Of a stretch of 64,000 nt of DNA, positions 11,386 to 47,934 are shown one piece after another. Position 1 is the stretch's first letter, and each line of letters begins with the position of its first letter. The translations under genes and the position numbers were made by a program. The notes beneath the pieces are model-generated. The model saw only the letters and a list, made by a program, of their open reading frames with translations. It was not told the origin of the DNA and did no database searches. This stretch comes from a virus: IMG/VR virus record IMGVR_UViG_3300029913_000003, positions 1-64,000 of that record. The stretch is one strand, 5' to 3'.

Positions 11386-12728
11386 ATTTTAACTGGATTA
11401 CACAGTTTAAACATATAATTTTTCAGCCATGAAAAATCATTATTTTTGTTTGATTTTTTAATATGATTAACTGCACCATTTAAATCTGCATTCATTGTTT
11501 TATTTATTAGTTTGTCTGTAAACAATCCACGTTTAGAACGAACACCATTTAGTTCTTTATCTAACGGATTATTAACATCATCACTAACACAAGAACACTT
11601 GGAAGTGTAGGCTTCGTTAATTATATCTACTTGAATTCCAACTTCATTACTTTTATATTGAATGTAATCCAATAATTTAATGAAAGGAATCTGTATGAAA
11701 TTTTGTTTTACTTTATTATTTAATTTGCAGTCACCATTATATTTTAAGCTAGCTAAATTATATGATATGGTTAGGTTTGTTACTGAATTTAATTTCAAGA
11801 ACTCAACTACCCTTTTACTTACTTTATGAAACTGATCATAAAAATAACGATTCCTCTTTTCATAAAGAAATGTCTTATACTTCCTTAATTCTATTCCTCT
11901 TTGAGTCCACTTGGAAGCATATTTAATATTATTTTTACTTAAACTATATTCTATTACTTCGTTAGAAATTGATTCATTTAATTTAGCTATAAAACGATTG
12001 AATTTTGAGTTATAAGTCTTAAAGTGATTTCCATCTACAATAATTGATTTAGATTTTTTATCATCAATAAATATTGCAAGCAAATTATTGACTCCAACAT
12101 CAATCCCTGCTTCTTTTATGTTCAAATTACTATTTAAAATATCTTCAGTTAAATAGTTCAAGTGTAAATAAATTTCTTTGTTTGAGTAAACTATTTTAAG
12201 GCTTTGAATGTTTTTTGGTAGAAATTCGTGTTTGAAATCAATGTAAAACATTTTATTACTTAAGTTAATTCCAATTTTATCTTTTTTCTTGAAGGAAAAT
12301 GCAATTTGATCAACTAAAATTGAATATTTTGTTACCAAGAATAGCTTTTTAGCACTGGGTGTATTTGCCTTAACTTTTTGTTTGATTTTAGTGAAAAATG
12401 CTTTATAACTTACTTTAACTCTCTTAATCAAATCAGAAATATTATGAATTTTAAGACATTTAGATAAACGAATCAACTCAATCATTTTATCATAATTTTT
12501 ATATTTATCTTTAATAAACTTTACTTTGTCTTTTTCCAAACCGCCAGCAGTTTCAGCAAGAACTGCTCTCATGACTTTATAGTTAGAAAGTAAATTAAAA
12601 TCTTCTTGGTTTTCCTTCAATATTATAAGGTATAAGTTTTCGAAGTGACGATATTTGAAAATATAATCACTCATCATTTTTTTATATTTATCTTCTTTAA
12701 TGTGTATTATGAAGGTTCTATTATTCAT
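11271..12728 (-). CDS. tnpB: TnpB / Fanzor-like RuvC-fold RNA-guided nuclease (IS200/IS605 OrfB family)
   Basis: RuvC-I GIDVGVNN, RuvC-II INEAYTSKCSC, RuvC-III NADLNGAVNHI; 485 aa; no adjacent TnpA. Confidence 0.8.
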   Translation of the reverse strand: MNNRTFIIHIKEDKYKKMMSDYIFKYRHFENLYLIILKENQEDFNLLSNYKVMRAVLAETAGGLEKDKVKFIKDKYKNYDKMIELIRLSKCLKIHNISDLIKRVKVSYKAFFTKIKQKVKANTPSAKKLFLVTKYSILVDQIAFSFKKKDKIGINLSNKMFYIDFKHEFLPKNIQSLKIVYSNKEIYLHLNYLTEDILNSNLNIKEAGIDVGVNNLLAIFIDDKKSKSIIVDGNHFKTYNSKFNRFIAKLNESISNEVIEYSLSKNNIKYASKWTQRGIELRKYKTFLYEKRNRYFYDQFHKVSKRVVEFLKLNSVTNLTISYNLASLKYNGDCKLNNKVKQNFIQIPFIKLLDYIQYKSNEVGIQVDIINEAYTSKCSCVSDDVNNPLDKELNGVRSKRGLFTDKLINKTMNADLNGAVNHIKKSNKNNDFSWLKNYMFKLCNPVKIKCDYDFFKFIKNSVFGQGMLSNNIQTSLPVQICACLS

Positions 12729-14848: not shown

Positions 14849-15424
14849 ATGATTGAGTACTACAATAAATATTTTAATATAATATCTGAAAATGATAGTT
14901 ATAATTCTGAAATTGCATTTATTAATACAAATAATACTTGCATATTTAAAGAATCTGCATATGTTGAATATATTGAAAATAACACATTAAAATATGGAAT
15001 ATTCAAAATGACAGATGAATTGAAAAAAATTTATTTTGAATTTAGAAATAATCCAGATTTTATACATAAAATAATCAAAAAAATTCAAATTTCAACAAAC
15101 AATTATTCTTATATTAAAATATTAAAAGATAATATAAATCCTCAATTAGAAGGAAAAATAATGATTTTTAAATTTAAGCATAAAATTTCTGAAACTATTG
15201 GAACTTATATAATTAAAGAAAAAATAAATATTATTGGTCATACATTTAGAATAAATTTAAATAAAAAAAGTCATTATCTCAATACTGATTATTGTTATTT
15301 CACTAATGTTGAATATTGCATTGAAGATTATAGTTTAGATATTAGAAATGATATTCATATTAAATCTTTGAATATATTAAATATAGAAAGAAAAGAAAAA
15401 ATTAAAAAATTAAATTTATTATAA
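14849..15424 (+). CDS. hypothetical protein (191 aa)
   Basis: ORF track. Confidence 0.5.
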   Translation: MIEYYNKYFNIISENDSYNSEIAFINTNNTCIFKESAYVEYIENNTLKYGIFKMTDELKKIYFEFRNNPDFIHKIIKKIQISTNNYSYIKILKDNINPQLEGKIMIFKFKHKISETIGTYIIKEKINIIGHTFRINLNKKSHYLNTDYCYFTNVEYCIEDYSLDIRNDIHIKSLNILNIERKEKIKKLNLL

Positions 15425-15427
15425 TTT

Positions 15428-15766
15428 ATGAAAATTATATTACTATCAATAATTATATTTGAGTTATATGCAATAATTTCTATATATGCAAAAAAATATT
15501 TAGAGAAGAGATATAATAAAATGTATAAAGATTTTTTTATTTATGTAAATATTAATTTAGATTTTCCAAAGGCGTTATATTATCCTATTCATATATTATT
15601 ACGTAAAAAATATGATATGAAATATAAGAAATTATATTTAAGTGCTAAAATAGATGAAATATATTTTTATGATTTTCAATCTGACTTTATTGATAATAAA
15701 TTATCTAATTTACAAAAAGAACTAAACAAAATTAATAGACAAATTAAATTAAAAAAATTAAAATGA
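15428..15766 (+). CDS. small membrane protein with IKLKKLK tail
   Basis: N-terminal TM helix; tail motif. Confidence 0.5.
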   Translation: MKIILLSIIIFELYAIISIYAKKYLEKRYNKMYKDFFIYVNINLDFPKALYYPIHILLRKKYDMKYKKLYLSAKIDEIYFYDFQSDFIDNKLSNLQKELNKINRQIKLKKLK

Positions 15767-16200
15767 TTAATACATTTATTTTATTAGTAGAAATTGCAAT
15801 TATATTATCTATATATTATCTGATAAATTCATTCATATTAAAAAATGAACTTAAAAAATATACTAATGAATATAGAATATATTTTAAAAAAAGACATATA
15901 AATAAACATCCTATTTTATATATTTTTTTCACTATGTTTATATTTTTATATAATAAGTATCATAAAGATGAAATTGAATATGATTTCTTAAAATATAAAG
16001 TTGAAAGATGTGATTTAATAAAAAATGATCCATATTTTATAACGCTAAATAATAACATATCTGTTTATAAAAATAACTCTGTTTATAAAATTGATAATTT
16101 TAATATTAAAGAGGAAGAAATACGAAAAAAATTAAGATCTTGTGCATTAAAAATAAAATTAAAAAAAATAAATAAAATAGTTAATGATGATAGCAAATGA
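15763..16200 (+). CDS. small membrane protein with LKIKLKKINK tail
   Basis: ATGA overlap; TM helices. Confidence 0.5.
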   Translation: MINTFILLVEIAIILSIYYLINSFILKNELKKYTNEYRIYFKKRHINKHPILYIFFTMFIFLYNKYHKDEIEYDFLKYKVERCDLIKNDPYFITLNNNISVYKNNSVYKIDNFNIKEEEIRKKLRSCALKIKLKKINKIVNDDSK

Positions 16201-16531
16201 TATAATATTAATATGTTTTATAATATTTAATATTTATATAATAGTAAATTGTATATTATTTATCATTTATAAAAAATTAATTAAAAAAGGTATTGATTTT
16301 TATGAATATTTTTATGATAATAATATTAGGAAGAAAATTTTATTATATATGTTTTTAACTATATTTATTATTTCATATAATATTTTATATAAAGATAATA
16401 TTAAACTTAAGTATTATAATTATAAATTGAAAAAAATAAGATATGGAGAAGATTTTGAATCAGAATTAAATGAAATAAAAAAATTAATTCATCAGACTGA
16501 AAGAAGAATAAAAATTAAAAAATTCAAATGA
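16184..16531 (+). CDS. small membrane protein with RIKIKKFK tail
   Basis: ORF track; TM helices. Confidence 0.5.
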   Translation: MMIANDIILICFIIFNIYIIVNCILFIIYKKLIKKGIDFYEYFYDNNIRKKILLYMFLTIFIISYNILYKDNIKLKYYNYKLKKIRYGEDFESELNEIKKLIHQTERRIKIKKFK

Positions 16532-17019
16532 ATAATATATTAAAGCTAATAACGATTTCTTTTGAAAAATATTATTATAATAATAGGAATGAATATCTTA
16601 AAATAGATTTTATTAAAAATTTTATGTATGATAATTGTGATAATATAAATCCTACTGATTTTATTAATAAAAAAATACCAATATATTTCGTTTATGATAT
16701 AAAAGATAATTTAGAATTAAAAGATATAAATATAAATGAATTTGATACTAATGAAATTTATGATAATAAAAAACAAATTTTAGAGTTAGTCGATCAAGAT
16801 AATGAAATAATTGAATGTATTGATTTTTCATTATTTTCTGATAGAAAATATATAATATATTCAAATTTAAATAATAATATAGTATTAAAAAATAAAATAT
16901 ATTCAAATGATTATAAATTATTTTTATTCTATGAGGATCATAACTTTATTGTAAAATTAATATATTCTCCTAATATTAGAAAATATAAATTACAGCAAAT
17001 TAAAAAGACGATAAAATGA
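16528..17019 (+). CDS. hypothetical protein (163 aa)
   Basis: ATGA overlap both sides. Confidence 0.5.
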   Translation: MNNILKLITISFEKYYYNNRNEYLKIDFIKNFMYDNCDNINPTDFINKKIPIYFVYDIKDNLELKDININEFDTNEIYDNKKQILELVDQDNEIIECIDFSLFSDRKYIIYSNLNNNIVLKNKIYSNDYKLFLFYEDHNFIVKLIYSPNIRKYKLQQIKKTIK

Positions 17020-17231
17020 AAATAGGAGATATAGTAATATATATAGGTAAAGATAATAAATTAATATATTTGAAAGAATATACTATTTATTATATAACTA
17101 CAACAGGATTTAATTATATATTTTTTATGATTGATGGAATTAATGCTATGAGCATGTTTCCTATTGAAGATTTTTGTACATTAAAAGAATATAGAAAATT
17201 AAAATTAAATAAATTATGCTCAACCAAGTAA
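17016..17231 (+). CDS. family A small protein (MKIGDIVIYIG ... LKEYRKLKLNKL)
   Basis: ORF track. Confidence 0.55.
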   Translation: MKIGDIVIYIGKDNKLIYLKEYTIYYITTTGFNYIFFMIDGINAMSMFPIEDFCTLKEYRKLKLNKLCSTK

Positions 17232-17434
17232 AAGGAATTACAGCTAAAACAGAATTAGATAAAAAAGCATATGAAAAATATGAAGAGTATATTGATATTC
17301 AAGGTTATTACACTCAATATACGTTAGATTTATTCTTAACTCAAAAGAAATCTAATAAAATTAAATTATTTTATGAAATAGCTTTAAAACAATTGAGATT
17401 AGATAAATTAAATAAATTATGTATACAGAATTAG
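17216..17434 (+). CDS. family D small protein (...KLNKLCIQN), TAG stop
   Basis: First of 4 tandem paralogs with overlapping junctions. Confidence 0.5.
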   Translation: MLNQVKGITAKTELDKKAYEKYEEYIDIQGYYTQYTLDLFLTQKKSNKIKLFYEIALKQLRLDKLNKLCIQN

Positions 17435-17613
17435 AAAAATTAAACAAGTTTGCATATGATATGTTTATATACGACATGAAAAATAAATATAGAATAAGCT
17501 ATTTGACTATTTATGAATTTATTGAAAATAAAGAAATATATCATAATTATTATGATAAAGCAAAAAAATTAATAAGAAAAGAAAAACTTAATAAAATATG
17601 CACACAAACGTAG
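17419..17613 (+). CDS. family D small protein (...KLNKICTQT), TAG stop
   Basis: Tandem paralog. Confidence 0.5.
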   Translation: MYTELEKLNKFAYDMFIYDMKNKYRISYLTIYEFIENKEIYHNYYDKAKKLIRKEKLNKICTQT

Positions 17614-17789
17614 ATATGCTAGCATATGAATTATATTGTGAAAGTAGAAATCCAAAGGATGAAGGATATTCATGCCTATGTACATTTGATTATTTTATTT
17701 ATAAAAAAAATGAATATCAATTATATTATGATAAGGTTATCAGAAAAGAAAAACTTAAAGAATTAAATGAAATATGTACACAGAATTAG
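17598..17789 (+). CDS. family D small protein (...ELNEICTQN), TAG stop
   Basis: Tandem paralog. Confidence 0.5.
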   Translation: MHTNVDMLAYELYCESRNPKDEGYSCLCTFDYFIYKKNEYQLYYDKVIRKEKLKELNEICTQN

Positions 17790-17965
17790 ATAAATTGACA
17801 TATAAATTATATTCAGAATATATGATGTCTGAAAGATGTATTATTTGGAATGATATTGAATATTTTATAAAACGTAAAGATTCATATCATGATTATTTCA
17901 ATGACGCTATAATTAAATTAAGAAAAGAAAAACTCAATACTATATCAAAATATGTGCAAATTTAA
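17774..17965 (+). CDS. family D small protein
   Basis: Tandem paralog. Confidence 0.5.
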   Translation: MYTELDKLTYKLYSEYMMSERCIIWNDIEYFIKRKDSYHDYFNDAIIKLRKEKLNTISKYVQI

Positions 17966-18513
17966 TATCGGAGATAAAATTGTTTATATTGTATATGAAA
18001 ATAATTTATCTTTTTATGAGTATCCGTTTGAGTGTTTTAAATATAGTGTTTTATTGTTAATTATTTAGCATGTGTTACTTGTCAACCATCTCTTTATTAG
18101 TTAACTACGTACAACTCTCAATTTTAACTTGGGGATTAATTAAAACATAAGAAACAACTCCATAGTAGTTGATCAGAACAATCAACCACGTATGCTTTAT
18201 TTTAGTCTATCCTAATTGATGACCCATACAATCAAATTTTATAACTATATAAATAACAAGACATTACTAATATTAAATAGATAAAGCGAATCAACATAAA
18301 TATATATATTAAGATATCCAAACGGATACTCATATATCTTTTTATGATGATTTTTTTAAAAAATATAACACGTATACGATAGTTCAAATTTTAAATAATG
18401 GTATTACATTTGGACTAGGAATTAAAGAGATAGGTGGTTATTACTCATCAAATTATTTCATAACTTTAAAAGAATATAGAAAATTAAAACTTCAAAAATT
18501 AGAATTGTTATGA
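17952..18513 (+). pseudogene. family A gene split by a MITE insertion
   Basis: MCKFNIGDKIVYIVYENNLSFY | 320-bp insert | DDFFKKYN...ITLKEYRKLKLQKLELL*; removing insert plus one TSD copy restores the frame. Confidence 0.6.
18015..18334. mobile_element. MITE-like non-autonomous element with 16-bp TIRs and 8-bp TSD
   Basis: TIRs TATGAGTATCCGTTTG / CAAACGGATACTCATA perfect; flanking direct repeat TATCTTTT at 18007..18014 and 18335..18342; no ORF inside. Confidence 0.7.
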
Positions 18514-18757
18514 TAACTAATATAAATAAATATGATAAAGTAGTATATATTTTGGTCATGATGGTAAAATTAGTCAGTCTAAATTTATCTATGGTAATAT
18601 TTATACAGTAACAGGCTACTTTCGATCTTATATACCAGAATTGTCTTATATAACTACAGATGAAATAGAAAATTTTTATATTTATCTTAATTTTTTTATT
18701 ACATTAAAAGAATATAGAAAATTAAAACTTCAAAAATTAGAATTATGTTTAGAGTAG
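18510..18757 (+). pseudogene. family A pseudogene, frameshift in a T-run
   Basis: MITNINKYDKVVYIL.. then frame switches to ..HDGKISQ...ITLKEYRKLKLQKLEL. Confidence 0.5.
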
Positions 18758-18954
18758 GAGAAAAAATAGTTTATATAAAGCAATCATATACTGGACTTAA
18801 ATTAGCATCAATTCATATTATAAAAGATATTAGATTTGATACTAGTATATCATTAGAAGATTCTTATAAAAATTGGTGGTTTTCATCCGAATGTTTTATA
18901 TCACTATCTGAATATCGAAAACAAAAACTTAATGAATTAAAAAAAATATCATAA
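18745..18954 (+). CDS. family A small protein (MFRVGEKIVYI ... LSEYRKQKLNEL)
   Basis: ORF track. Confidence 0.55.
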   Translation: MFRVGEKIVYIKQSYTGLKLASIHIIKDIRFDTSISLEDSYKNWWFSSECFISLSEYRKQKLNELKKIS

Positions 18955-20081: not shown

Positions 20082-20084
20082 TAT

Positions 20085-20387
20085 ATGAAAATAGGAGATA
20101 AAATATTTTGCTTAGATTATCAAATATATTCGGATTATAATGACGATATTAAATATAAAGGAGGATTATTAAAAAAAAATACAGAATATACAATCTATGG
20201 TATTTTTTTAGAATTTAGTGATTATTCTGAAAAATGGGTAGCAGAAACTCCTAAGATAGATGATAATAATTGTCAAATATATTTTGAATTAATTGAACTT
20301 GATGAGTTGATGTTTAATAAATGTAGATTTTTAACTAATAATGAATATAGAAAACTTAAGTTGCAGAAAATATATGAAAGTAGGTGA
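20085..20387 (+). CDS. family A small protein (MKIGDKIFCLD)
   Basis: ORF track. Confidence 0.55.
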   Translation: MKIGDKIFCLDYQIYSDYNDDIKYKGGLLKKNTEYTIYGIFLEFSDYSEKWVAETPKIDDNNCQIYFELIELDELMFNKCRFLTNNEYRKLKLQKIYESR

Positions 20388-20607
20388 TAAAGTAATTTTT
20401 CATAGTAATCATTATTATAGAGATTTAATAGAAGGTTACACATATACAATATCTGAAATTAATAGAATAGATGATGCTTATATTGAAATACCTAACGAAG
20501 ATTATATTATAGTATTATTAGAAAATACTTACGTTTTTTTATCAGATTTTATAACTATAAAAGAATATCGAAAACTTAAATTGAAAGAAATAGATGAAAG
20601 TAGGTGA
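20341..20607 (+). CDS. family A small protein (MKVGDKVIF)
   Basis: ORF track. Confidence 0.55.
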   Translation: MNIENLSCRKYMKVGDKVIFHSNHYYRDLIEGYTYTISEINRIDDAYIEIPNEDYIIVLLENTYVFLSDFITIKEYRKLKLKEIDESR

Positions 20608-20797
20608 TAAAGTTGTATGTATTGATAATTATAATTATACATATAAAATTTCATTAGATAAAATTTTAACAATAAAATTCAATAATAATTCTTATATGAA
20701 ATTTGATGAAATCGATTATAGATATTCAAGTAATAGATTTATAACTATAAAAGAATATAGAAAACGTAAATTAAAAAAATTAAAAAACTTATACTAA
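20594..20797 (+). CDS. family A small protein (MKVGDKVVCID)
   Basis: ORF track. Confidence 0.55.
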   Translation: MKVGDKVVCIDNYNYTYKISLDKILTIKFNNNSYMKFDEIDYRYSSNRFITIKEYRKRKLKKLKNLY

Positions 20798-22962: not shown

Positions 22963-23033
22963 GCTCATTTAGTCCAGTGATAGGGCGGTAGCCTCTAAAA
23001 CTACCTACATCGGTTTGAATCCGATAGTGAGCA
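22963..23033 (+). tRNA. tRNA with anticodon CUA (amber-reading / suppressor-type), hand-folded
   Basis: Acceptor GCTCATT/AGTGAGC; D-stem GTCC/GGGC; anticodon stem GTAGC/ACTAC with loop CTCTAAA (U33, A37); T-arm ATCGG-TTTGAAT-CCGAT; discriminator A; 71 nt. Confidence 0.65.
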
Positions 23034-23070
23034 CAAATATATTTTTCATAAGGTATATTTATTTTTAAAA

Positions 23071-23139: not shown

Positions 23140-23592
23140 TTGTATCTTATTTTAAAACTTATAAAAATGATTGTAAATATTGTAAATTATGTAATGAGTA
23201 GTTCATATATATCATTAAATACTGATTATAATATTTTTTATAATAATAATGATTCTATTAAAATATTAGATTTTAATAAGATGCTTGATATTACTATATC
23301 AATGAAAATAAATAATATAAATTTAGGTGGACTATTATGGTTCGTTAAAGAAATTCGTATGTATGAAATATGTCAATTAAAAGAATGTAAAGATTTTACT
23401 GATATGTTGAGAATGATTGGTATAATAATTGGCACAAATACTATATCTATAAGTGATGAAATATATTCAATAAAAGGTTTAACTTTATTAGAATTAACTC
23501 ACATAATTGATAATAATCCTGATAATTCATTTCAGAAATTACGAACATATATTAGAAAGAAAAAACTTGAAAAAATAATGATAGATGCTTAA
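23140..23592 (+). CDS. hypothetical protein with IRKKKLEKIMIDA tail
   Basis: ORF track. Confidence 0.5.
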   Translation: MYLILKLIKMIVNIVNYVMSSSYISLNTDYNIFYNNNDSIKILDFNKMLDITISMKINNINLGGLLWFVKEIRMYEICQLKECKDFTDMLRMIGIIIGTNTISISDEIYSIKGLTLLELTHIIDNNPDNSFQKLRTYIRKKKLEKIMIDA

Positions 23593-23839
23593 CGTTGGAG
23601 ACAAAATTTATTTTATTAAATCTTTATGATACAATATAGATTTACCATCAAATAAAGAATTAACAATCTTACATATATTTGATTGCCGTAATAATATTGT
23701 AATAGGAGGAGTTACTACTGTAATTAGAATAAAAGAAGCTATAATTGTTGATGATTATTATTCAGAACAATTTTTATCATTGAAAGATTATAGAAAAGAA
23801 AAACTAAAAAAATTATCAAATATATGCAAGCTTGGGTAA
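23585..23839 (+). pseudogene. family A-like pseudogene (multiple frame breaks)
   Basis: MLNVGDKIYFIKSL* then tail ..SLKDYRKEKLKKLSNICKLG* readable only in other frames. Confidence 0.45.
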
Positions 23840-24078
23840 AAAAACATAATTCAACATTTTATTGTATTGATAACTATATAAAAAAAGATAATAAAAATTA
23901 TAATCTTAAATCTTATAAAATGGGTACATCTTTTGATAAATATACTAATTTTAGAATAATATACTATGATAGTAATATATCAAGACAAGTTTTTTTTTCA
24001 AATATAACATTATCTGCTAATGAATATAATAATTTTATAAGAAAAACAAAAATTGAAAAATTATCAAAATATGAATGA
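23824..24078 (+). CDS. hypothetical small protein, tail IRKTKIEKLSKYE
   Basis: ORF track. Confidence 0.45.
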   Translation: MQAWVKKHNSTFYCIDNYIKKDNKNYNLKSYKMGTSFDKYTNFRIIYYDSNISRQVFFSNITLSANEYNNFIRKTKIEKLSKYE

Positions 24079-24334
24079 TTGGATAAATAAATGGATAGAA
24101 AGAAAAAATGAATTACCATTATTTTTTGATTATATTATTAAAAAAGATAATGAAAAATATGAATTTTATTCATATATGAAATTAACAACTTATGAATTTA
24201 GCATAAAAGTTAAATTGTCATATTATATTATAAATGTAGATACTATGTTTTCAGATGAAAAAGAAATATCATTTAATTCATTTAATAATTATCTTAGAAA
24301 AATTAAATTAGAAAAATTAAATGAAAATATCTAA
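24053..24334 (+). CDS. hypothetical small protein, tail LRKIKLEKLNENI
   Basis: ORF track. Confidence 0.45.
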   Translation: MKNYQNMNDWINKWIERKNELPLFFDYIIKKDNEKYEFYSYMKLTTYEFSIKVKLSYYIINVDTMFSDEKEISFNSFNNYLRKIKLEKLNENI

Positions 24335-24608
24335 TTTTGAATTATTGATTTATGTTATAAATAACGTTGAACGTTTTTATATATCAGAAGGATATGTTAT
24401 AGATCGTATATCATATAATATAATTAGAAATACATTATGTATAACTGTACGATATTTAATTAAAGTTGATTCTGAATTATGTACAAGTATTACAGTAAAT
24501 GTTAATATTAGAGATTATATTAGAGAAACTAGAAGAATAAAATTTAAGAAAATGAAAATAGATGAAAATAACAAAAAAGGATATGATGATTTATATATTG
24601 AATCATGA
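24321..24608 (+). CDS. hypothetical small protein
   Basis: ORF track. Confidence 0.45.
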   Translation: MKISNFELLIYVINNVERFYISEGYVIDRISYNIIRNTLCITVRYLIKVDSELCTSITVNVNIRDYIRETRRIKFKKMKIDENNKKGYDDLYIES

Positions 24609-24793
24609 TGAAGAATTTATTCTTAATAAAAAATATACTATTGACGATATAAAATATCATATATCAATAATGAAATTAATATTGATATTACATATTTAAT
24701 AGCTGATAATAAATATAAACAATTTAATTATTATATTTATATTTTAGAATACGTAAAATATATAAGAAAATTTAAATTATCTAAAATAATATT

Positions 24794-25222
24794 ATGATAA
24801 ACGTAAAGTTATATAATAAAGAATTATTTACTAAACATAATTTGTTTATTGAAGTCTGTATTCCTAATGATAAATATAATTCTATATCTCATTTATTTGA
24901 TGTAATAATAAATAAATTAATAGAGTATAAAAATAGAGATGTTTATTTTGCTTCTATTCGTAGTTTAATAGGTATAATGCTAGTTGAAATGAAACATGTA
25001 GATGAATTGGAATTAGAAGATTTTTTTAGAATTTTTCAATATAGATTTGATGTGCTTGATAATAAAATAGATGTGTTTAATGGATGGTATCATTTTATAA
25101 ATCAAGATATAGAAGATATTAAAGGAATAACTTTACATCAATTTAATATGATGATTAATGATGATAAATATATTAAAAAATATTTTAGAATGATTAAACT
25201 TCAAAAATTATCAAAATTATGA
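24794..25222 (+). CDS. hypothetical protein, tail RMIKLQKLSKL
   Basis: ORF track. Confidence 0.5.
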   Translation: MINVKLYNKELFTKHNLFIEVCIPNDKYNSISHLFDVIINKLIEYKNRDVYFASIRSLIGIMLVEMKHVDELELEDFFRIFQYRFDVLDNKIDVFNGWYHFINQDIEDIKGITLHQFNMMINDDKYIKKYFRMIKLQKLSKL

Positions 25223-25590
25223 TAGTAGAATATTATAATATAGATTTTTCAATAAATTATCAATCTGAAGAAATAGATTCAAATAGAATATATAATATTA
25301 TTAAAAATTATATAAATAATTATATAATGATATATAAAAATAATCCTCATATTTATGTAGGTAAGGATTGTTTTGATTTTATTTTATATTCCGATAAATT
25401 TCATCTTATTTCTTACAAATCATCAAAACCTTATATCGGAATATTATATGACTGTTATCTTTATATAAACACAGATTTACAAGAAGGGGATTTTTATTTA
25501 TCTAATAATAAAATAGATTTTAAACAATATAATAGAAAATTAAAAATAGAAAAAATAAATAATTATTATAATGAAAATAGTAAAATTTAA
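25219..25590 (+). CDS. hypothetical protein, tail NRKLKIEKIN
   Basis: ATGA overlap. Confidence 0.5.
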   Translation: MIVEYYNIDFSINYQSEEIDSNRIYNIIKNYINNYIMIYKNNPHIYVGKDCFDFILYSDKFHLISYKSSKPYIGILYDCYLYINTDLQEGDFYLSNNKIDFKQYNRKLKIEKINNYYNENSKI

Positions 25591-25707
25591 TGTTGAAATA
25601 TTTGATAATTATATATTAAAAACTACTAGGATTTTTACGAATTATTATATAAAGAAATATCTAAAAATTTTAATGATTATGGAGTTGCTGTTGTTTTTAG
25701 TCGTAAA

Positions 25708-25914
25708 ATGATGGATAATTTAAATTATCTTAATTGTAATTATAAAATTCATATTCAATATCAAGTAAATGATTATATAAACATAAATGATGTTTTTATA
25801 TATCCATATTATGCAGCCAATGAATGTGATATTATATTAACAGATTTTGATTTTATTAAATATTATAGAAAACAAAAACTTAAAGAAATATGTTTAAACC
25901 AGGAGATAGAGTAG
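25708..25914 (+). CDS. family A member with decayed N-terminus (tail YYRKQKLKEICLNQEIE)
   Basis: Upstream in-frame remnant DYGVAVVFSRK lacks a start. Confidence 0.45.
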   Translation: MMDNLNYLNCNYKIHIQYQVNDYININDVFIYPYYAANECDIILTDFDFIKYYRKQKLKEICLNQEIE

Positions 25915-26132
25915 TTTGCATAAATGATGAAAATAATTGTGATCCAAATATAAATCTAATTAAATATAATATTTATATTGTAAAAGAGTTACATGAATAT
26001 ACCAATAATAGAATAATATTAGAATATCATGAAAATAGTTTATATTATAATACTAGATTTATATTATTAAAAGAATATAGAAAAGAAAAACTCAAACAAA
26101 TAGAATTATGTTCAAACCAGGAGATAAAGTAG
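25890..26132 (+). CDS. family A small protein (MFKPGDRVVCIND)
   Basis: Tandem array; junction ELCSNQEIK overlaps next start. Confidence 0.6.
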   Translation: MFKPGDRVVCINDENNCDPNINLIKYNIYIVKELHEYTNNRIILEYHENSLYYNTRFILLKEYRKEKLKQIELCSNQEIK

Positions 26133-26344
26133 TGTGTATTAATGATAAATATTTTTATAATGATAAATCTATAATAGAAATGATTAAATATAATATTTAT
26201 ACAATAAATAGAATTGCAGAAATTTCAGGTAGCAATACAGATAGAGTTGTATTATATGAATGTAAACGTATGTATTTTTCACACAGATTCATATCATTAA
26301 AAGAATATAGAAAACAAAAATTATTAGAAATATGTTCAAAGTAG
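26108..26344 (+). CDS. family A small protein
   Basis: MFKPGDKVVCIND ... RFISLKEYRKQKLLEI. Confidence 0.6.
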   Translation: MFKPGDKVVCINDKYFYNDKSIIEMIKYNIYTINRIAEISGSNTDRVVLYECKRMYFSHRFISLKEYRKQKLLEICSK

Positions 26345-26598
26345 GAGATAAAGTAGTTTGTATTGATGTTAAAAAATATAATAATAATAATTATAATGTA
26401 AACCTAATTAAATATAATATTTATACAATTAATATAGATTTTTCAGTTTTTGATAGATCAAGTTTTGGTAGATCAAGAGTTGAAATAAAAGAATGTTGTA
26501 ATGAGACATTTTATTCAGAGAGATTTATATTATTAAAAGAATATAGAAAACAAAAACTCAAACAAATAGAATTATGTTCAAACCAGGAGATAAAGTAG
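26332..26598 (+). CDS. family A small protein
   Basis: MFKVGDKVVCIDV ... RFILLKEYRKQKLKQI. Confidence 0.6.
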   Translation: MFKVGDKVVCIDVKKYNNNNYNVNLIKYNIYTINIDFSVFDRSSFGRSRVEIKECCNETFYSERFILLKEYRKQKLKQIELCSNQEIK

Positions 26599-26813
26599 TT
26601 TGCATTGATCAACAATATAGAAAAAAATACAATTTACCTAATACAATATTAGAAGTTACAGAATATAAAGATATAAGATATAAAAAATTATTTAGTGAAA
26701 ATTTTATTATTTGTTTCAAAGATATAAAATATGGATATAATTATAATTGTTTTATGCTATTAAAAGAATATCGTAAATTAAAATTATTAAAATTAAATAA
26801 AAATGATAAGTGA
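26574..26813 (+). CDS. family A small protein
   Basis: MFKPGDKVVCIDQ ... LLKEYRKLKLLKL. Confidence 0.6.
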   Translation: MFKPGDKVVCIDQQYRKKYNLPNTILEVTEYKDIRYKKLFSENFIICFKDIKYGYNYNCFMLLKEYRKLKLLKLNKNDK

Positions 26814-27084
26814 ATCAAGTCTTGTTAATTATATAGAAAATCTAAATCTTAGAAAAACCCATGAATGTTTTGATACTAACTATATAATTGATAATAATTA
26901 TATAATATGCATTGAATCATCTACTAATGTTTTTTTCATAGATAAAAAAATGAATTCGAACCTGTATATTTTCATAATTAATATTGAAAAATTAAAAGAT
27001 ATTTATTATAAAAAAACTGGTAAAAATATAGAAATTTTAATGAGAAAAGAAAAACTAAAAAAATTAGAAGAATGTTCAAGATAA
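26803..27084 (+). CDS. divergent array member (tail LMRKEKLKKLEECSR)
   Basis: Lacks GD start motif. Confidence 0.45.
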   Translation: MISESSLVNYIENLNLRKTHECFDTNYIIDNNYIICIESSTNVFFIDKKMNSNLYIFIINIEKLKDIYYKKTGKNIEILMRKEKLKKLEECSR

Positions 27085-27296
27085 GAGATAGAGTAGTTTG
27101 CATTGATAATTCTTATTTATATGATATAAATCTATTACAATTAAATAATATTTATATAATTGAAGATATTTTTAGTTATGATACAGAAAATAATTATATT
27201 GGTATGATATTAGAAAAATATAATTTTGAATTTAATTCTAATAGATTTATATCATTAAAAGAATATAGAAAACAAAAAATATTAAAATTATGTTAA
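27072..27296 (+). CDS. family A small protein (MFKIRDRVVCIDN)
   Basis: ORF track. Confidence 0.55.
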   Translation: MFKIRDRVVCIDNSYLYDINLLQLNNIYIIEDIFSYDTENNYIGMILEKYNFEFNSNRFISLKEYRKQKILKLC

Positions 27297-27535
27297 AACC
27301 AGGAGATAAAGTAATTTGTATTGATAATTCTTATTTAGATGATAATAGTATGAGAAAATTATTATTAAACCATATTTATATAATTAAACTATGCTTTACA
27401 TATCAATCAGATCATTTTAATTATATTATATTAGAAAATGATTTTGAATATCATGAAAATAGATTTATAACATTAAAAGAATATAGAAAACAAAAACTAT
27501 TAAAATTATGTTCAAACCAGGAGATAAGTTATTAG
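27290..27535 (+). CDS. family A small protein (MLKPGDKVICIDN)
   Basis: ORF track. Confidence 0.55.
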   Translation: MLKPGDKVICIDNSYLDDNSMRKLLLNHIYIIKLCFTYQSDHFNYIILENDFEYHENRFITLKEYRKQKLLKLCSNQEISY

Positions 27536-27756
27536 AAATATCAACTAACAAAATTTTCACATTCTGTGATTATATAAAAACTATATCATATTCATCAAAT
27601 TATAATGATATGATAGTGAATGATTATGATTATGAAAATGGTTTAATATCAATCAATGAAGATGCAGAAAATTATCATAGAATTAATAAATATTTATCTA
27701 TTAAAGAATGTAGAAAAGAAAAACTTAAAAAATTATATAAAGATTTTAATATTTAA
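27508..27756 (+). CDS. family A divergent member (MFKPGDKLLEIS)
   Basis: ORF track. Confidence 0.5.
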   Translation: MFKPGDKLLEISTNKIFTFCDYIKTISYSSNYNDMIVNDYDYENGLISINEDAENYHRINKYLSIKECRKEKLKKLYKDFNI

Positions 27757-28615: not shown

Positions 28616-28840
28616 ATGAAAATAGGAGATAAAGTTTTATTTACTGATTATTTTTATGAACATCATAAATATATAACAGATAATAGATATAATATTTTTA
28701 CAATCAAAGATTATTTTAGCGATAATTTCACCATTATTTCTTTATATGAACTTCCAATGTATTATTTTGAACCAAAAAATTTAATAACAGTATCAGAAAT
28801 TAGAAAAAAAAAATTAAAAAAATTAAAAATATATGAATAA
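28616..28840 (+). CDS. family A small protein (MKIGDKVLFTD ... VSEIRKKKLKKL)
   Basis: ORF track. Confidence 0.55.
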   Translation: MKIGDKVLFTDYFYEHHKYITDNRYNIFTIKDYFSDNFTIISLYELPMYYFEPKNLITVSEIRKKKLKKLKIYE

Positions 28841-29914: not shown

Positions 29915-30208
29915 ATGAAAGAGCACAATCACAATAATGATATTAATTATAATGCTGTTATTGAACAATGTGGTTTAATATTATATAAAAAGAAAGCAAT
30001 AGGTAATAAAGCAAGATTATTGTATATAATTCAAGCAAAATCTGGTAGATATGATCATCAAAGTATTATTATAATAAAAGAAATTAATAAAGATTTCATA
30101 AAAATAAATGATTCTAATGATATAGAATCAAAATTATATGAACCAGATAGATTACTTTATAACCAAATAAAAGAATATATAATAGAAGCAAATTATGAAT
30201 ATAGATAG
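29915..30208 (+). CDS. hypothetical protein
   Basis: ORF track. Confidence 0.45.
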   Translation: MKEHNHNNDINYNAVIEQCGLILYKKKAIGNKARLLYIIQAKSGRYDHQSIIIIKEINKDFIKINDSNDIESKLYEPDRLLYNQIKEYIIEANYEYR

Positions 30209-31217
30209 AAAATTAGCAACAATTCAGGTAATTAAAGACATATTACCAATTAAAGGAGCAGATAGAATAGAGGTTGCACGCATAAAAGGTTGGAAAGTAG
30301 TAGTTAAAAAAGACGAATTTAAAGTAGGTGACAAAGTTGTTTATTTTGAAATTGATTCACTATTACCTATTAGAGAAGAATTTGAATTTCTTAGAAATAG
30401 TTCATATAGAAAAACTGATGAACAAGAAGGTTTCCTCTTGAGAACGGTCAAATTACGCAAACAATTTTCATGTGGACTAATAATGTCATTAGATATTTTA
30501 AATGATACACCTTGTCATATATTTAAATTGACAGAAGGTGATGATGTATCTGATTATCTAAATGTTGTAAAATTTGAAGTTCCAATACCTGATGAACTTA
30601 AAGCTGATGTTGTTGGTCCTATTCCTTCATTCATATTGAAGACAAATGAAGAACGCGCACAAAATTTATCTGATGATTTCGATGAATGGAAAAAAGATAA
30701 TGTAATATTCTATGAAACAGAGAAACTTGATGGTCAATCTACCACTATGTATTTACATAATGGAGTATTTGGCGTGTGTGGTAGAAACTGGGAATTTAAA
30801 AGAAATCCAAATAATTTATTTTGGAAATTTGCAATTGAAAATAATATTGAAGAGAAATTAAGAATATATGGTAAAAATATTGCTGTTCAAGGTGAATTAA
30901 TTGGTTCAGGAATAGAAGGCAATAACTATAAATTAAGCCATAAAACAATAAAATATTTTAGAGTTTTTAATATAGATGAATATAAATTGGAAGATTATAA
31001 TACATTCGTTGATATTGTAACTAATGTATTAAATGCTGACACGGTTCCTTTAATTTGTAGTTATTATAAATTACCTGGCACTATTGATGAAATATTAAAA
31101 CATGTTGAAGGCAAATCTGTATTAACAAATTCATCAAAAAGGGAGGGAAGTGTATTTAAATCAATTGATTCATCAATAAGTTTTAAGGTCATTAACAATG
31201 AATATTTAATTAATTGA
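30195..31217 (+). CDS. ATP-dependent RNA ligase (Rnl5/DraRnl-like: N-terminal OB/tRNA-binding fold plus nucleotidyltransferase)
   Basis: N-terminus IKGADRIEVARIKGWKVVV..VGDKVVYFE resembles OB tRNA-binding fold; ligase motif I ETEKLDGQS (KxDG); 340 aa. Confidence 0.5.
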   Translation: MNIDRKLATIQVIKDILPIKGADRIEVARIKGWKVVVKKDEFKVGDKVVYFEIDSLLPIREEFEFLRNSSYRKTDEQEGFLLRTVKLRKQFSCGLIMSLDILNDTPCHIFKLTEGDDVSDYLNVVKFEVPIPDELKADVVGPIPSFILKTNEERAQNLSDDFDEWKKDNVIFYETEKLDGQSTTMYLHNGVFGVCGRNWEFKRNPNNLFWKFAIENNIEEKLRIYGKNIAVQGELIGSGIEGNNYKLSHKTIKYFRVFNIDEYKLEDYNTFVDIVTNVLNADTVPLICSYYKLPGTIDEILKHVEGKSVLTNSSKREGSVFKSIDSSISFKVINNEYLIN

Positions 31218-31637: not shown

Positions 31638-31859
31638 ATGTTTAAACATGGTGATGTAGTAATTGCATTAGAAACATATGATAATTTAATTGTAATAAAT
31701 AATTCTTATATTATTGAACGTACTGGATATGTGAAAAATAGAAAAAAATATTATGTAATATTACAGTATCCGCCTGGTTTTTATATAGAAGAAGAAAAAT
31801 TTAAATTAGATATAAAATATCAAAGAATAGAAAAATTGAAAAAAATATGCAAAATATAA
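31638..31859 (+). CDS. family A-like small protein (MFKHGDVVIALE ... QRIEKLKKI)
   Basis: ORF track. Confidence 0.5.
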   Translation: MFKHGDVVIALETYDNLIVINNSYIIERTGYVKNRKKYYVILQYPPGFYIEEEKFKLDIKYQRIEKLKKICKI

Positions 31860-32191
31860 TAAATAGCAGAAATATTATTAATAATATTAGTCATGATGCT
31901 CATAAATTATTAATTTATATTTATGAGAATGGTAGTGCTGAATATAAAGATCCACAATATCAATCTATCTCTGATTTTATAGGCAATTCATTATATTTGA
32001 ATCTTGTTGAAGAATTTAAAATAAGAAATTGTGACGGTACACTTTATTTAATACCAGAGTTAATAAAATATTCATTAGTTGATAAATATTTTTCAGAATA
32101 TACTGATAAATATATATTATCTGATTTTGGTAAAAAAATACTTGTTAGCGTTATTAGAAAAGAAAAATTAAAAAAATTAGAAAAATTATAA
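31847..32191 (+). CDS. hypothetical protein, tail IRKEKLKKLEKL
   Basis: Paralog of 31311. Confidence 0.45.
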   Translation: MQNIINSRNIINNISHDAHKLLIYIYENGSAEYKDPQYQSISDFIGNSLYLNLVEEFKIRNCDGTLYLIPELIKYSLVDKYFSEYTDKYILSDFGKKILVSVIRKEKLKKLEKL

Positions 32192-36714: not shown

Positions 36715-37053
36715 ATGATTGATAAAAAAAGATTAAAAGAACACCTTAATAATGGTAAAATAGAATATGTTATGTGCGCTTCTAATTGGATAGATGATGG
36801 AATAGATTATCTTTATAAGCCATATAATATAGATAAAGGAATTTGCTATAATAGCGTACGGCATCCTTGCATATATGAGCAAACAAATAAAATTTATCCT
36901 GCTGAAAAATATGGAATGTTGACTGTTGAAGGATTTTTAACTACAAAAAATAGATTTCTTAATAGAGAAGAAGCTTTAGAATTAGTTAAATCAAATGATC
37001 AGTTAAAACAAGATTTAATAGGTAGTGTATTAACATCTGAAGATTTATGGTAA
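36715..37053 (+). CDS. hypothetical protein
   Basis: ORF track. Confidence 0.45.
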   Translation: MIDKKRLKEHLNNGKIEYVMCASNWIDDGIDYLYKPYNIDKGICYNSVRHPCIYEQTNKIYPAEKYGMLTVEGFLTTKNRFLNREEALELVKSNDQLKQDLIGSVLTSEDLW

Positions 37054-37307
37054 ATAGAAATATAATTAAAATAGGATATATGAGAATTAATATAGATACT
37101 ATTTTATGCTATTATATTGGTAGAGGTGATAAAACTATTATAATTCAAAGATCACTAGATGATATAAATGATATTGAAATAGATTTTGATAATAATATAG
37201 AATGTGAAAAATCATTAGCTGAATTAGATTCATTATTAGTTTTAAATGCTCATAATTATATAAGAAAATTAAAAATAGAAGAACTAAATGATAATAGAAC
37301 GAGATAA
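37047..37307 (+). CDS. hypothetical small protein, tail IRKLKIEELND
   Basis: Paralog of 37288. Confidence 0.45.
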   Translation: MVNRNIIKIGYMRINIDTILCYYIGRGDKTIIIQRSLDDINDIEIDFDNNIECEKSLAELDSLLVLNAHNYIRKLKIEELNDNRTR

Positions 37308-37563
37308 AATTAAAATAGGTGATTATAGATTAAAAATTGATAGTATATTTGCATATTATCCTACTACAGTTGAAGAAAATGATCGTTGGTTTATTGTAAT
37401 TGAACGTGACGTACCAGATGGTATTACAGAATTAGAAGTCGAATTTGATACAGAAGAAGAAAGAGATAAAGTTTTATTAGAATTAGATAAATTATGTACT
37501 ATTGATCCAATGAATTTAAGAAAAGAAAAATTAGAAGAAATAAATAAAAATGGAAAAATTTAA
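37288..37563 (+). CDS. hypothetical small protein, tail LRKEKLEEINK
   Basis: Shared KIG(D)YR..IDSI..YY N-terminus. Confidence 0.45.
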   Translation: MIIERDKIKIGDYRLKIDSIFAYYPTTVEENDRWFIVIERDVPDGITELEVEFDTEEERDKVLLELDKLCTIDPMNLRKEKLEEINKNGKI

Positions 37564-39743: not shown

Positions 39744-40445
39744 ATGAAAATTTTAAACATAGGGGATATTCACGGATTTGATTCATGGAAAAAATTTGTA
39801 GATGATATTTCTCAATATGATAAAATAATATTTGTAGGAGATTATGTTGATGAATATCATCTAAGTAATATTACAATATTAAATAATTTATTAGATATCA
39901 TTGAATTTAAGAAAAAATATCCAGATAAAGTTATTTTATTATTAGGTAATCATGATTATCAATATGCTATACGACCACCTAGTATGAATATTTTAGGACA
40001 TTGCTCTGGATATAGAGCAGAAATGCATTTTGATTTATATGAAATATTTCATAATAATTTAAAATTATTTCAATTATCTTATCAATACGAAAATTATATT
40101 TGGACCCATGCAGGAATTCATCGTGGATGGTATGACCATTTTTTAATAGAATTTAAAAAAGTTTCTGATTTTGAAGGTACTATATCAGATAAATTAAATT
40201 TAGCATTTGAATTTGAGTTAGAATGCTTACTTGATTGCGGATATGTACGTGGTGGATATAATAAAGTTAGCGGTCCATTGTGGGCTGATAAAACTGAATC
40301 ATGGACTAAACCATTAAAGAATTGTCATCAAATTTGCGGTCATACCCACACAGATAAAATAGTTCATCATGAAATACCAAATATAAATTCATCTGTTACA
40401 TATATTGACTCCTTGCCAGAATATTGTTACATTTTAAATATATAA
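39744..40445 (+). CDS. calcineurin-like metallophosphoesterase (PPP / ApaH / lambda-phosphatase-like)
   Basis: GDIHG ... FVGDYVDEY ... LLGNHDYQY ... GHTHTD. Confidence 0.6.
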   Translation: MKILNIGDIHGFDSWKKFVDDISQYDKIIFVGDYVDEYHLSNITILNNLLDIIEFKKKYPDKVILLLGNHDYQYAIRPPSMNILGHCSGYRAEMHFDLYEIFHNNLKLFQLSYQYENYIWTHAGIHRGWYDHFLIEFKKVSDFEGTISDKLNLAFEFELECLLDCGYVRGGYNKVSGPLWADKTESWTKPLKNCHQICGHTHTDKIVHHEIPNINSSVTYIDSLPEYCYILNI

Positions 40446-40448
40446 ATT

Positions 40449-40670
40449 ATGAAAATTAAAATATTTAATTACTATTTCGGTACCAGACTTGCATATGCTG
40501 ATACTATTACTAAACTTGAGTATGAATTGAATCATTGGATAGAATATGATAAACCTGAAATTAAACAATTCACACAATCAAATACTAAAGAATATTTAAT
40601 ATATACCTTTTTATATTACGAAAAAAAAGAATTAAGAAAAACAAAACTTGAAAAAATTAATGAATTATGA
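40449..40670 (+). CDS. hypothetical small protein, tail LRKTKLEKINEL
   Basis: ORF track. Confidence 0.45.
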   Translation: MKIKIFNYYFGTRLAYADTITKLEYELNHWIEYDKPEIKQFTQSNTKEYLIYTFLYYEKKELRKTKLEKINEL

Positions 40671-41375: not shown

Positions 41376-41468
41376 AAGAAAGTAAGTCAAAAGGTCAGAC
41401 TAGTAAAGCCAAAAAAGCGTTTATATAAAAAATATTCATTTATGTTGGTTCGAATCCAACCTTTCTTT
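41376..41468 (+). tRNA. tRNA-like gene with canonical T-arm and D-arm plus ~20 extra nt (possible intron)
   Basis: Acceptor AAGAAAG/CTTTCTT perfect 7 bp; D-arm AGTC-AAAAGGTCA-GACT; T-arm GTTGG-TTCGAAT-CCAAC; anticodon region not canonical. Confidence 0.4.
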
Positions 41469-47920: not shown

Positions 47921-47934
47921 TAATTTGCATTGAA

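Follow-up and report, generated by a model that had tools for sequence, protein, structure and literature searches.

Tandem arrays of an SH3-like gene family

The first 64,000 nucleotides of the IMG/VR virus record IMGVR_UViG_3300029913_000003 (positions 1 to 64,000; hereafter the window) are about 20% G+C and are crowded with small open reading frames (ORFs) that abut or overlap. About 11% of this 64-kb window is made up of one unnamed gene family encoding small SH3-like proteins. To delineate the family, a hidden Markov model (HMM) profile built from eight copies was iterated over all stop-to-stop ORFs of the window until convergence. We found 31 family loci, fragments included, with E-values of 1e-13 to 1e-27: nine on the minus strand at 5602-7663, eight at 25630-27756, three at 20082-20797, three at 47917-48566, three near 18313-18954 (one of them the 3' part of a split copy at 17952-18513), and singles at 17016, 23630, 28616, 31638 and 41636. 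Members are stand-alone ORFs of 62-100 amino acids (aa). Two IMG/VR contigs, L004 and L012, are syntenic with the window, with about 80% nucleotide identity in conserved genes, and served for comparison. The HMM-identified copies, together with the genes lying among them, are as follows.

25571-25914, plus strand: divergent leader copy of array A, frameshifted; ORFs 25571-25711 and 25708-25914 are one 113-aa ORF in L004 (9448-9789); tail YYRKQKLKEI
25890-26132, plus strand: SH3-like copy, 80 aa, intact (HMM E 1.8e-26)
26108-26344, plus strand: SH3-like copy, 78 aa, intact; the copy modelled by AlphaFold2 (P0002)
26332-26598, plus strand: SH3-like copy, 88 aa, intact
26574-26813, plus strand: SH3-like copy, 79 aa, intact
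26803-27084, plus strand: non-SH3 ORF within array A, 93 aa; shares only the tail, MRKEKLKKL; conserved in L004 and L012 with dN/dS of about 0.3
27072-27296, plus strand: SH3-like copy, 74 aa
27290-27535, plus strand: SH3-like copy, 81 aa
27508-27756, plus strand: SH3-like copy, 82 aa, last gene of array A; divergent N-terminal block KLLEIS
28616-28840, plus strand: solitary SH3-like copy, 74 aa; orthologs in L004 and L012
5602-7663, minus strand: array B, nine SH3-like copies (5602-5826, 5854-6042, 6056-6256, 6244-6480, 6468-6707, 6683-6925, 6901-7185, 7166-7399, 7424-7663)
17016-17231, plus strand: SH3-like copy, 71 aa
18745-18954, plus strand: SH3-like copy, 69 aa
20085-20797, plus strand: array C, three SH3-like copies (20085-20387, 20341/20371-20607, 20594-20797)
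31638-31859, plus strand: divergent SH3-like copy, 73 aa
41636-41893, plus strand: SH3-like copy, 85 aa, probable start MKQGDK
47935-48566, plus strand: array of three (47935-48120, truncated at the N-terminus; 48121-48346, ATA for ATG; 48330-48566, intact)

A preliminary description of the window, made from the sequence alone, had counted about 45 copies. That number equals the occurrences of a C-terminal tail motif, 21 of whose carriers are unrelated to the family. The nine-copy minus-strand array that it reported is present, as are the plus-strand ORFs at 25890, 26108, 26332, 26574, 27072, 27290 and 27508 and the copies at 17016, 18745, 20085-20797 (three), 28616, 31638, 41636 and 48330, all within the E-value range above. 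Its eight copies at 25890-27756 are seven members, because ORF 26803-27084 has only the tail in common with them, and the ORF 25708-25914, with which the stretch that it described opens, is the 3' part of the frameshifted leader gene.

Across the array at 25708-27756, neighbouring genes lie in different frames, as described earlier, and overlap by 25, 25, 13, 25, 11, 13, 7 and 28 nt, a span of 7-28 nt. The sequence ATGTTCAAACCAGGAGATAAAGTAG reads MFKPGDKV in one gene and CSNQEIK followed by the stop in the frame of the preceding gene, and a start reading MFKVGD instead yields CSK and a stop there. The ELCSNQEIK tail described earlier does hold the ATG of the next gene, but it is not a motif in its own right, since the CSNQEIK end is an out-of-frame reading of the next gene's MFKPGDKV and therefore a by-product of the overlap. 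Overlapped tandem genes thus create spurious conserved ends, which annotators should not call motifs.

Codon usage is also biased at the gene starts. Codon 2 is TTC in nine of the 14 Phe-starting copies (for example 26108, 26332 and 26574), against 15% TTC genome-wide, and the Gly of the GD motif is encoded by GGA in 13 of 15, which results in AGGAGAT just within the gene start. The upstream overlapping frame or translation initiation may act as the constraint behind both biases.

Fold, variation and turnover of the family

The AlphaFold2 model of the 26108 copy, based on 114 homologs, was confident (predicted local distance difference test score, pLDDT, 89.3; predicted template modelling score 0.74) and comprises an SH3-like barrel followed by a C-terminal helix. 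Based on DSSP assignment, the model has strands at residues 7-10, 30-38, 45-49, 55-57 and 61-63, a 3/10 turn at 58-60 and a helix at 64-77 with pLDDT of 95-97, and the SH3-fold order of RT loop, n-Src loop, distal hairpin and 3/10 turn ahead of the last strand is reproduced. The basic C-terminal helix of the preliminary description was thus recovered as a confidently modelled one. Its likening of the N-terminus to KOW/SH3-like proteins agrees with the modelled fold and fails at the level of sequence, as none of the 13 copies scanned matched KOW or any other Pfam profile at E<=1.

The top Foldseek matches of the model were the SH3 domains of Fyn, Src, Abl and spectrin and a chymase-Fynomer complex, all of them weak (E 0.04-0.1, template modelling score about 0.45-0.5). 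The best structural neighbours were mostly RNA- or DNA-binding barrels, including uL24, the KOW domains of Spt5/NusG, the SH3-like domain of Xrn1, a PWWP domain with single-stranded DNA, and OapB. Family copies had no match in NCBIfam, Pfam or the PDB sequences. Three of 22 copies matched phrog_14634 ("DNA binding protein") weakly (E 9e-7 to 8e-3) and only over profile positions 4-64 of 245, an N-terminal part the size of a barrel. No window copy matches Pfam DUF6501; distant tail-less relatives with 3-13 in-frame barrel repeats match DUF6501, DUF7244 and, weakly, Phage_ProQ_C_like.

The family is widespread in metagenomes. A profile search of 1.84 billion metagenome representatives returned 5,668 representatives at 50% identity with E<=1e-3, 784 of them at E<=1e-10, and the best 150 of the 5,668 were mostly proteins of 65-95 aa matching through the tail; all 113 matches of a first homolog search were unnamed. 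The top representative match, P0114 (7,545 aa with 127 "repeats"), is a perfectly periodic 59-aa unit that is almost certainly an assembly artefact, and it was ignored. No match was obtained by tblastn with a family member and a distant relative against 50,697 GenBank phage records, nor with a degenerate DNA pattern for F-I-x-L-K-E-Y-R-K-x-K-L in 185,579 species genomes. The N-terminal pattern of the barrel had a single cellular match, a Flavobacteriaceae genome (L021) with two tail-less barrels in tandem, which is no more than a weak hint as to the host.

Variation is unevenly distributed along the protein. In an alignment of 22 copies, K3, G5, D6, F61, R68, K69, K71 and L72 are near-invariant and the strand positions are conserved as hydrophobic, and entropy and insertions peak at model positions 12-29 and 37-46, the equivalents of the RT and n-Src loops. 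The hypervariable middle noted in the preliminary description was therefore borne out. These two loops border the surface through which SH3-type domains bind their ligands. Because the first and last strands adjoin in this fold, the N-terminal block, the RFISL strand and the helix form one constant base opposite the variable face. The net charge of the barrel ranges from -7 to +8 and its isoelectric point from 4.3 to 9.9; the tail is always basic, with a net charge of +1 to +6.

We estimated the ratio of nonsynonymous to synonymous divergence (dN/dS) by the Nei-Gojobori method on reciprocal-best pairs with L004 and L012; these estimates are rough owing to base composition and to dS near saturation. 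Enzymes of the window had dN/dS of 0.08-0.21 and family copies 0.25-1.0. Values by region, pooled over 14 ortholog pairs, were as follows.

N-terminal block: dN/dS 0.36, dS 0.485
Variable middle: dN/dS 0.73, dS 0.63
Tail: dN/dS 0.28, dS 0.77

The ends of the protein are under purifying selection and the middle is fast-evolving, with positive selection unproven. The diversifying pressure proposed earlier goes beyond these values, as the pooled ratio of the middle is high yet below 1. The nearest paralog within the window usually lies in the same array, often in the adjacent position, and is 40-61% identical, so that there are no recent duplicates and the pattern points to old local tandem duplications and not to a recent amplification. 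One-to-one orthologs are kept across relatives at only 50-60% identity, and copy numbers differ at corresponding arrays, with a relative (L008/L009) carrying 14-15 copies in a row.

Array at 20082-20797: three copies in the window, six in L004, six in L012
Array at 25630-27756: eight copies in the window, seven in L004, three in L012

At least nine of the 31 loci are damaged. The decaying copies of the preliminary description (the frameshift, the lost start codon, the truncation and the split copy) are all real, and damage was additionally found at 23591-23839, in two copies of array B (5854-6042 and 6056-6256, with truncated tails) and in the leader gene 25571-25914. Since copies have been gained and lost and are decaying among syntenic relatives, the birth-and-death turnover suggested earlier also holds. 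At 48121-48346, ATA stands at the position of the neighbour's ATG, and 47935-48120 has no N-terminus. The remaining damaged loci are the following.

17952-18513, plus strand: SH3-like copy split by an element of about 310 nt with 26-nt inverted ends (18015-18040 and 18309-18334)
18511-18757, plus strand: frameshifted SH3-like copy, N-terminus in one frame and the remainder in another
23591-23839, plus strand: SH3-like pseudogene without ATG; in-frame TGA where the L004 ortholog has TGG (Trp)

The inserted element at 18015-18334 resembles a miniature inverted-repeat transposable element; it is non-coding, relatively G+C-rich and without an Rfam match, its inverted ends are 85% complementary, and it is flanked by duplicated ATCTTTTTATGA-like sequence. 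A TnpB gene lies at 11271-12728.

A C-terminal helix shared with unrelated proteins

The tail is not confined to the SH3-like family, an aspect absent from the preliminary description. We scanned 154 non-overlapping ORFs of at least 50 aa for the pattern [RK]K.K[LIM]..[LIVM], with per-protein shuffles as control. Of 45 occurrences, 43 lay within 15 residues of the C-terminus (43/154 ORFs, about 28%) and only two elsewhere, compared with a shuffle expectation of 0.42 (maximum 3) C-terminal occurrences. The 43 carriers consist of 22 family members and 21 proteins without detectable relation to them, and all are small (59-191 aa). Among the unrelated carriers are three paralogs with hydrophobic N-terminal stretches, a second small tandem family, a zinc-ribbon-like protein and some proteins without a Pfam match that reach 191 aa. 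In addition to ORF 26803-27084 in array A, tails or tail variants were found on the following non-SH3 ORFs.

124-1685, plus strand: 124-390, and paralogs 619-963, 993-1346 and 1353-1685 with hydrophobic N-terminal stretches, ending YIRKKKLQKIK
8118-8502, minus strand: two paralogs, 8118-8318 and 8323-8502, ending SYIRKKKLENI and SYIREKKLEKI
14849-17019, plus strand: 14849-15424 and 16528-17019; weaker variants at 15428-15766 and 15763-16200
17419-17965, plus strand: second small tandem family, 63-64 aa, MYTELxKL..., with overlapping junctions (17419-17613, 17598-17789, 17774-17965); tail IRKEKLNKI
23167-25590, plus strand: 23167-23592, 23824-24078, 24071-24334, 24794-25222 (variant tail) and 25219-25590
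31847-32191, plus strand: 114 aa; three tandem paralogs in L004
34905-35183, plus strand: ORF with the tail motif
37047-37563, plus strand: two paralogs, 37047-37307 and 37288-37563
40449-40670, plus strand: ORF with the tail motif
43113-43511, plus strand: zinc-ribbon-like ORF, tail variant EIRLKKLKIL

Comparable results were obtained in L004, in which 29 of 56 ORFs bear the tail and only 10 of the 29 start with a GD-type N-terminal block. A homolog search with the non-SH3 ORF 31847-32191 returned only itself. No published account of the helix came up when the literature was searched in full text for the tail sequence, and a keyword search for similar phage families was likewise fruitless. 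As the tail is shared by unrelated proteins, the meaning of "family signature" changes, and its presence on 21 unrelated small proteins suggests a shared handle or an address tag.

The tail is conserved as protein and not as DNA. Its invariant Leu is encoded by TTA (15), CTT (13), CTA (3), TTG (3) and CTC (3), and its Arg by AGA (36), CGA (4) and CGT (2); the DNA pattern has 42 in-frame occurrences near 3' ends and two that are out of frame; and dS of the tail is not reduced. Tails are present even where the next start lies 59-824 nt off, and the motif stands 1-12 residues from the C-terminus, depending on how far the next gene overlaps. In more G+C-rich distant relatives the helix is kept as [YW]-R-x-x-[KQR]-[LI]-x-x-[LI] with fewer lysines, so that the richness in Lys may be partly compositional.

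A second terminal signature occurs in the same genome. Proteins that start with MKYIKxFE and end with NKFN[LI] at the stop are encoded by 11-12 ORFs of the window (51650-52751 and 58058-61871, minus strand), by 12 of the 29 ORFs in the flanks (L025 1-7470 and L022 1-7969) and by seven of 52 in L020. Among their bodies are ankyrin repeats and, in ORF 59510-60016, leucine-rich repeats; the genes of this class overlap by ATGA. In the AlphaFold2 model of one ankyrin member the repeat domain is confident, and the terminal motifs (pLDDT 58 and 70) lie outside the fold; pairing of N- and C-terminal strands was not seen in it. The rare Asn codon AAC is used in 10 of 12 junctions of this class, which may reflect some nucleotide-level constraint. 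Within ORF 59510-60016, the 60- and 120-nt tandem DNA repeats detected by TRF at 59628-59941 correspond to the leucine-rich repeats.

Candidate functions and genomic setting

Taken together, the architecture leads us to favour a repertoire of diversified SH3-like mini-binders with a constant docking helix, a reading to which we give about an even chance. The genes are genuine coding sequences, each for a stand-alone protein of 65-100 aa with a five-stranded SH3-like barrel, in which the first and last strands (GDKVVCI, RFISL) and the amphipathic basic helix LKEYRKxKLxK[IL] make up the constant base, and the RT- and n-Src-loop equivalents, hypervariable in sequence, length and charge, occupy the usual ligand face of SH3-type domains. 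The arrays have arisen through local tandem duplication and are turned over slowly by gain, loss and decay, and start codons placed 7-28 nt inside the preceding gene would permit coupled translation. The family could then be a natural counterpart of engineered SH3 Fynomers, a library of small binders whose variable faces would recognise different host or phage targets, and the constant helix could be a common handle that docks the barrels and at least 21 unrelated small proteins onto one shared partner. A likely setting would be early host takeover or counter-defence, in a neighbourhood that holds an RNA-repair-type gene set and ankyrin and leucine-rich-repeat proteins. The analysis shows that the genes are real, which class of fold they encode, where the variation lies, that the copies arose in tandem and turn over, and that the tail is conserved as protein and spread across families; that the proteins bind targets, that one common partner exists and what it is, and when they act are inferred from this architecture.

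Several points weigh against this explanation. The binder role is deduced from the architecture. With a dN/dS below 1 in the middle, relaxed constraint accounts for its variability no less well than diversifying selection. Damage affects at least about a quarter of the copies and none is a young duplicate, which would also suit a slowly decaying, weakly selected family. The tail helix may serve chiefly to cap the barrel structurally, as its high pLDDT in the model would allow, with its Lys richness partly compositional.

Neither small SH3-like barrels nor tandem paralog arrays of jumbo phages are new as such; the family here is unnamed and carries a conserved helix that it shares with unrelated proteins of the same genome. 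With eukaryotic SH3 domains and Fynomers, the family has in common the strand order, the long RT loop, the n-Src loop, the distal hairpin and the 3/10 turn before the last strand, but the structural match is weak, as given above, and there is neither a sequence relation nor an SH3 profile match. The diversity of the RT and n-Src loops is as in Fynomers, except that in the family it is natural and encoded as separate genes.

Phages G and 121Q carry tandem arrays of more than 30 similar genes that were read as the result of tandem duplication (Hua et al. 2017, PMC5646251). Like these, the family consists of head-to-tail small paralogs in very large genomes of more than 200 kb (proteins identical to those of the window lie on a 346,561-bp contig), with arrays of 3-9 copies in the window and up to 15 in L008. 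Unlike them, it has no tblastn match in the GenBank phages, its copies are old (40-61% identity) and not "very similar", and its end motif is shared with unrelated genes.

Among the alternatives, we regard it as unlikely that the proteins are small nucleic-acid binders in the manner of KOW, Tudor, Sso7d or the ProQ C-terminal domain, with the barrel and the basic helix together binding RNA or DNA and the proteins serving as regulators or architectural proteins instead of protein binders. The nearest structures being mostly RNA- or DNA-binding barrels, the weak matches to the N-terminal 60 positions of phrog_14634 (best E 9e-7), the weak Phage_ProQ_C_like matches of distant multi-repeat relatives and the positive charge of every tail agree with such a role. 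The SH3-like five-stranded barrel is indeed common to the family and the KOW barrels of NusG/Spt5 and uL24, but the family differs from these in having no KOW profile match, in its stand-alone multi-copy arrays, in the extra basic C-terminal helix and in the hypervariable loops, and it stands outside NusG/Spt5, transcription and ribosomal architecture. No other nucleic-acid-binding profile was matched either. The wide range of barrel charge is unlike that of a uniform nucleic-acid binder and unlike the uniformly basic barrel of the chromatin proteins Sso7d and Cren7. The tail also occurs on proteins with a hydrophobic N-terminus and on unrelated folds, and loops so variable at the usual ligand face speak for many different ligands.

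Because two different terminal signatures mark two sets of diversified interaction scaffolds, an address-tag reading is worth stating as well. In its broader form, which is also doubtful, an undescribed system for sorting phage proteins would use the RKxKLxx[LI] helix as its address or docking tag and the unrelated pair MKYIKxFE/NKFN[LI] as a second such tag. A very AT-rich lineage of large phages would then route dozens of diversified binders (SH3-like, ankyrin, leucine-rich-repeat and others) to one or two common machines, with a protease, a protein compartment and the apparatus of the capsid or of ejection as candidates, and the arrays would amount to a modular effector arsenal, by analogy with poxvirus ANK-PRANC proteins or secretion-system effectors. 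Poxvirus ankyrin proteins carry a C-terminal PRANC/F-box, and adaptors of the SspB type carry a C-terminal ClpX-binding peptide. These proteins and the T4 internal proteins combine a variable body with a short constant terminal module, as seen here, and in them the module links many different proteins to one machine; the likeness is one of analogy, without sequence similarity.

Somewhat less probable is the narrower proposal that the tail is a sorting or timing tag instead of a functional docking handle, either for loading into the capsid and ejection with the DNA or as a mark for proteolysis, with the barrels as cargo. The T4 capsid-targeting sequence loads internal proteins through an N-terminal signal that is cleaved, and the basic C-terminal ClpX signal of MuA and the lambda CII tail are proteolysis marks. 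As with the T4 type, a short terminal peptide is found on unrelated proteins of one phage (43/154 ORFs, 21 of them non-SH3), almost only at the C-terminus and always on small proteins, and a second motif pair marks other diverse proteins, with low-confidence ends outside the fold. The variable distance from the motif to the C-terminus, set by the overlap, is awkward for a signal read at a free C-terminus, however, and the tail of the SH3-like model is an ordered helix continuous with the last strand instead of a floppy end.

Little or no current function is a further and quite improbable explanation, in which the arrays are genome filler of a headful-packaging large phage, produced by tandem duplication and now decaying, with the conserved gene ends kept only by their overlap with neighbours and with the initiation regions of these. 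The arrays of phages G and 121Q were read as duplication-driven genome expansion (PMC5646251). The dN/dS of the middle and the damaged loci (at least nine of 31) would suit such filler. Gene starts here have A-rich upstream regions without a Shine-Dalgarno signal, so that gene ends rich in Lys, Asn and Glu could be favoured for the sake of initiation of the next gene, and the TTC preference at codon 2 hints at a nucleotide-level constraint at the junctions. Against these stand the dN/dS of 0.28-0.36 in the core and tail with undiminished synonymous divergence, which indicates that the protein is conserved, the persistence of one-to-one orthologs at 50-60% identity, the thousands of diverged family members on many contigs, and the tails retained by array-end and solitary copies. 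That the conserved unit is instead a junction DNA or RNA element (a promoter, recombination site or re-initiation signal) with incidental ORFs is very improbable and, for the RKxKL tail, largely refuted: within the arrays, DNA conservation is highest at the junctions, about 50-60 nt that cover the tail and the next start, and the second gene class has its AAC bias, but the tail pattern is nearly always in frame, its Leu and Arg codons are synonymous and differ at first and third positions, its dS is not reduced, and promoter-like sequences in the window were as frequent as in shuffles (61 found, 60.8 expected), with no terminators.

Large phages are rich in small ORFs without an assigned function. 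If the combination of variable face and constant handle in the mini-binder reading is true, the targets of the mini-binders would map how the phage takes over or disarms its hosts, and the shared tail would point to a single hub. Under the least interesting reading, the data still document, among syntenic relatives, how copies of a phage gene family are born and lost.

The assignment of the window to a large phage is drawn from its gene packing, including runs of ATGA overlaps, its phage-type genes and a suppressor tRNA. IMG/VR files syntenic relatives of the window as viral contigs of 40-330 kb, and metagenome contigs of up to 346,561 bp encode proteins identical to those of the window. The 64-kb window contains neither a capsid nor a terminase gene, which also counts against the favoured explanation, as the label "phage" then rests on the viral filing of relatives, the gene packing, the PHROG-type genes and the suppressor tRNA. 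A eukaryotic giant virus, in which the tail would be a nuclear localisation signal, was set aside in view of the ATGA overlap runs, the amber-suppressor tRNA, TnpB and the phage-type RNA ligase matches; no hallmark gene deciding between giant virus and phage was seen either way in the window. The upstream 30 nt of 152 starts showed no Shine-Dalgarno signal and were depleted in G and enriched in A, with A at a frequency of 0.6-0.66 at positions -3, -5, -6, -9, -12 and -13 and T at -1 in 61% of starts. A-rich initiation without a Shine-Dalgarno signal resembles translation initiation in Bacteroidota, and the host may accordingly be Bacteroidota-like.

The suppressor tRNA (anticodon CUA, "tRNA-Pyl" according to ARAGORN) lies at 22963-23034 on the plus strand and is conserved in L004 at 6348-6419. 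The window nevertheless has 21 TAG stops; many family genes stop at a TAG that arises from the GTAGGA of the next gene, and suppression there would add a few residues. A 93-nt Rfam tRNA match at 41376-41468 on the plus strand (41.4 bits), not called by ARAGORN, may be a tRNA with a long arm or an intron. Recoding of TGA as Trp, prompted by the TGA at a Trp position in 23591-23839, was rejected, as 41 ordinary ORFs terminate at TGA. Outside the window edge, about 3.9 kb (L022 883-4785) has no gene in the source annotation, and no tRNA was found there.

The larger ORFs of the window encode a major-vault-protein-like protein, TnpB, a PHA02142-type RNA ligase, a polynucleotide kinase/phosphatase, a CCA/poly(A) polymerase-type nucleotidyltransferase, a PPK2-HAD fusion and a glycosyltransferase. 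The first of these, an 817-aa ORF at 2531-4984 on the plus strand, has major-vault-protein repeat and shoulder (SPFH) domains (MVP_shoulder, E 5.5e-29) and adjoins the minus-strand SH3-like array; a tie to the tail-bearing proteins would be pure speculation. Homologs of the major vault protein in phage have been described in one report (bioRxiv 10.1101/2023.11.10.566534). The RNA-repair-type set comprises the PHA02142-type RNA ligase, a phosphoesterase, the polynucleotide kinase/3'-phosphatase, the nucleotidyltransferase and the PPK2-HAD_SAK_2 fusion, with coordinates 30195-31217, 39744-40445, 54718-55656, 56284-57006 and 61890-63539, and a second RNA ligase lies directly upstream of the window (L025 5083-6030).

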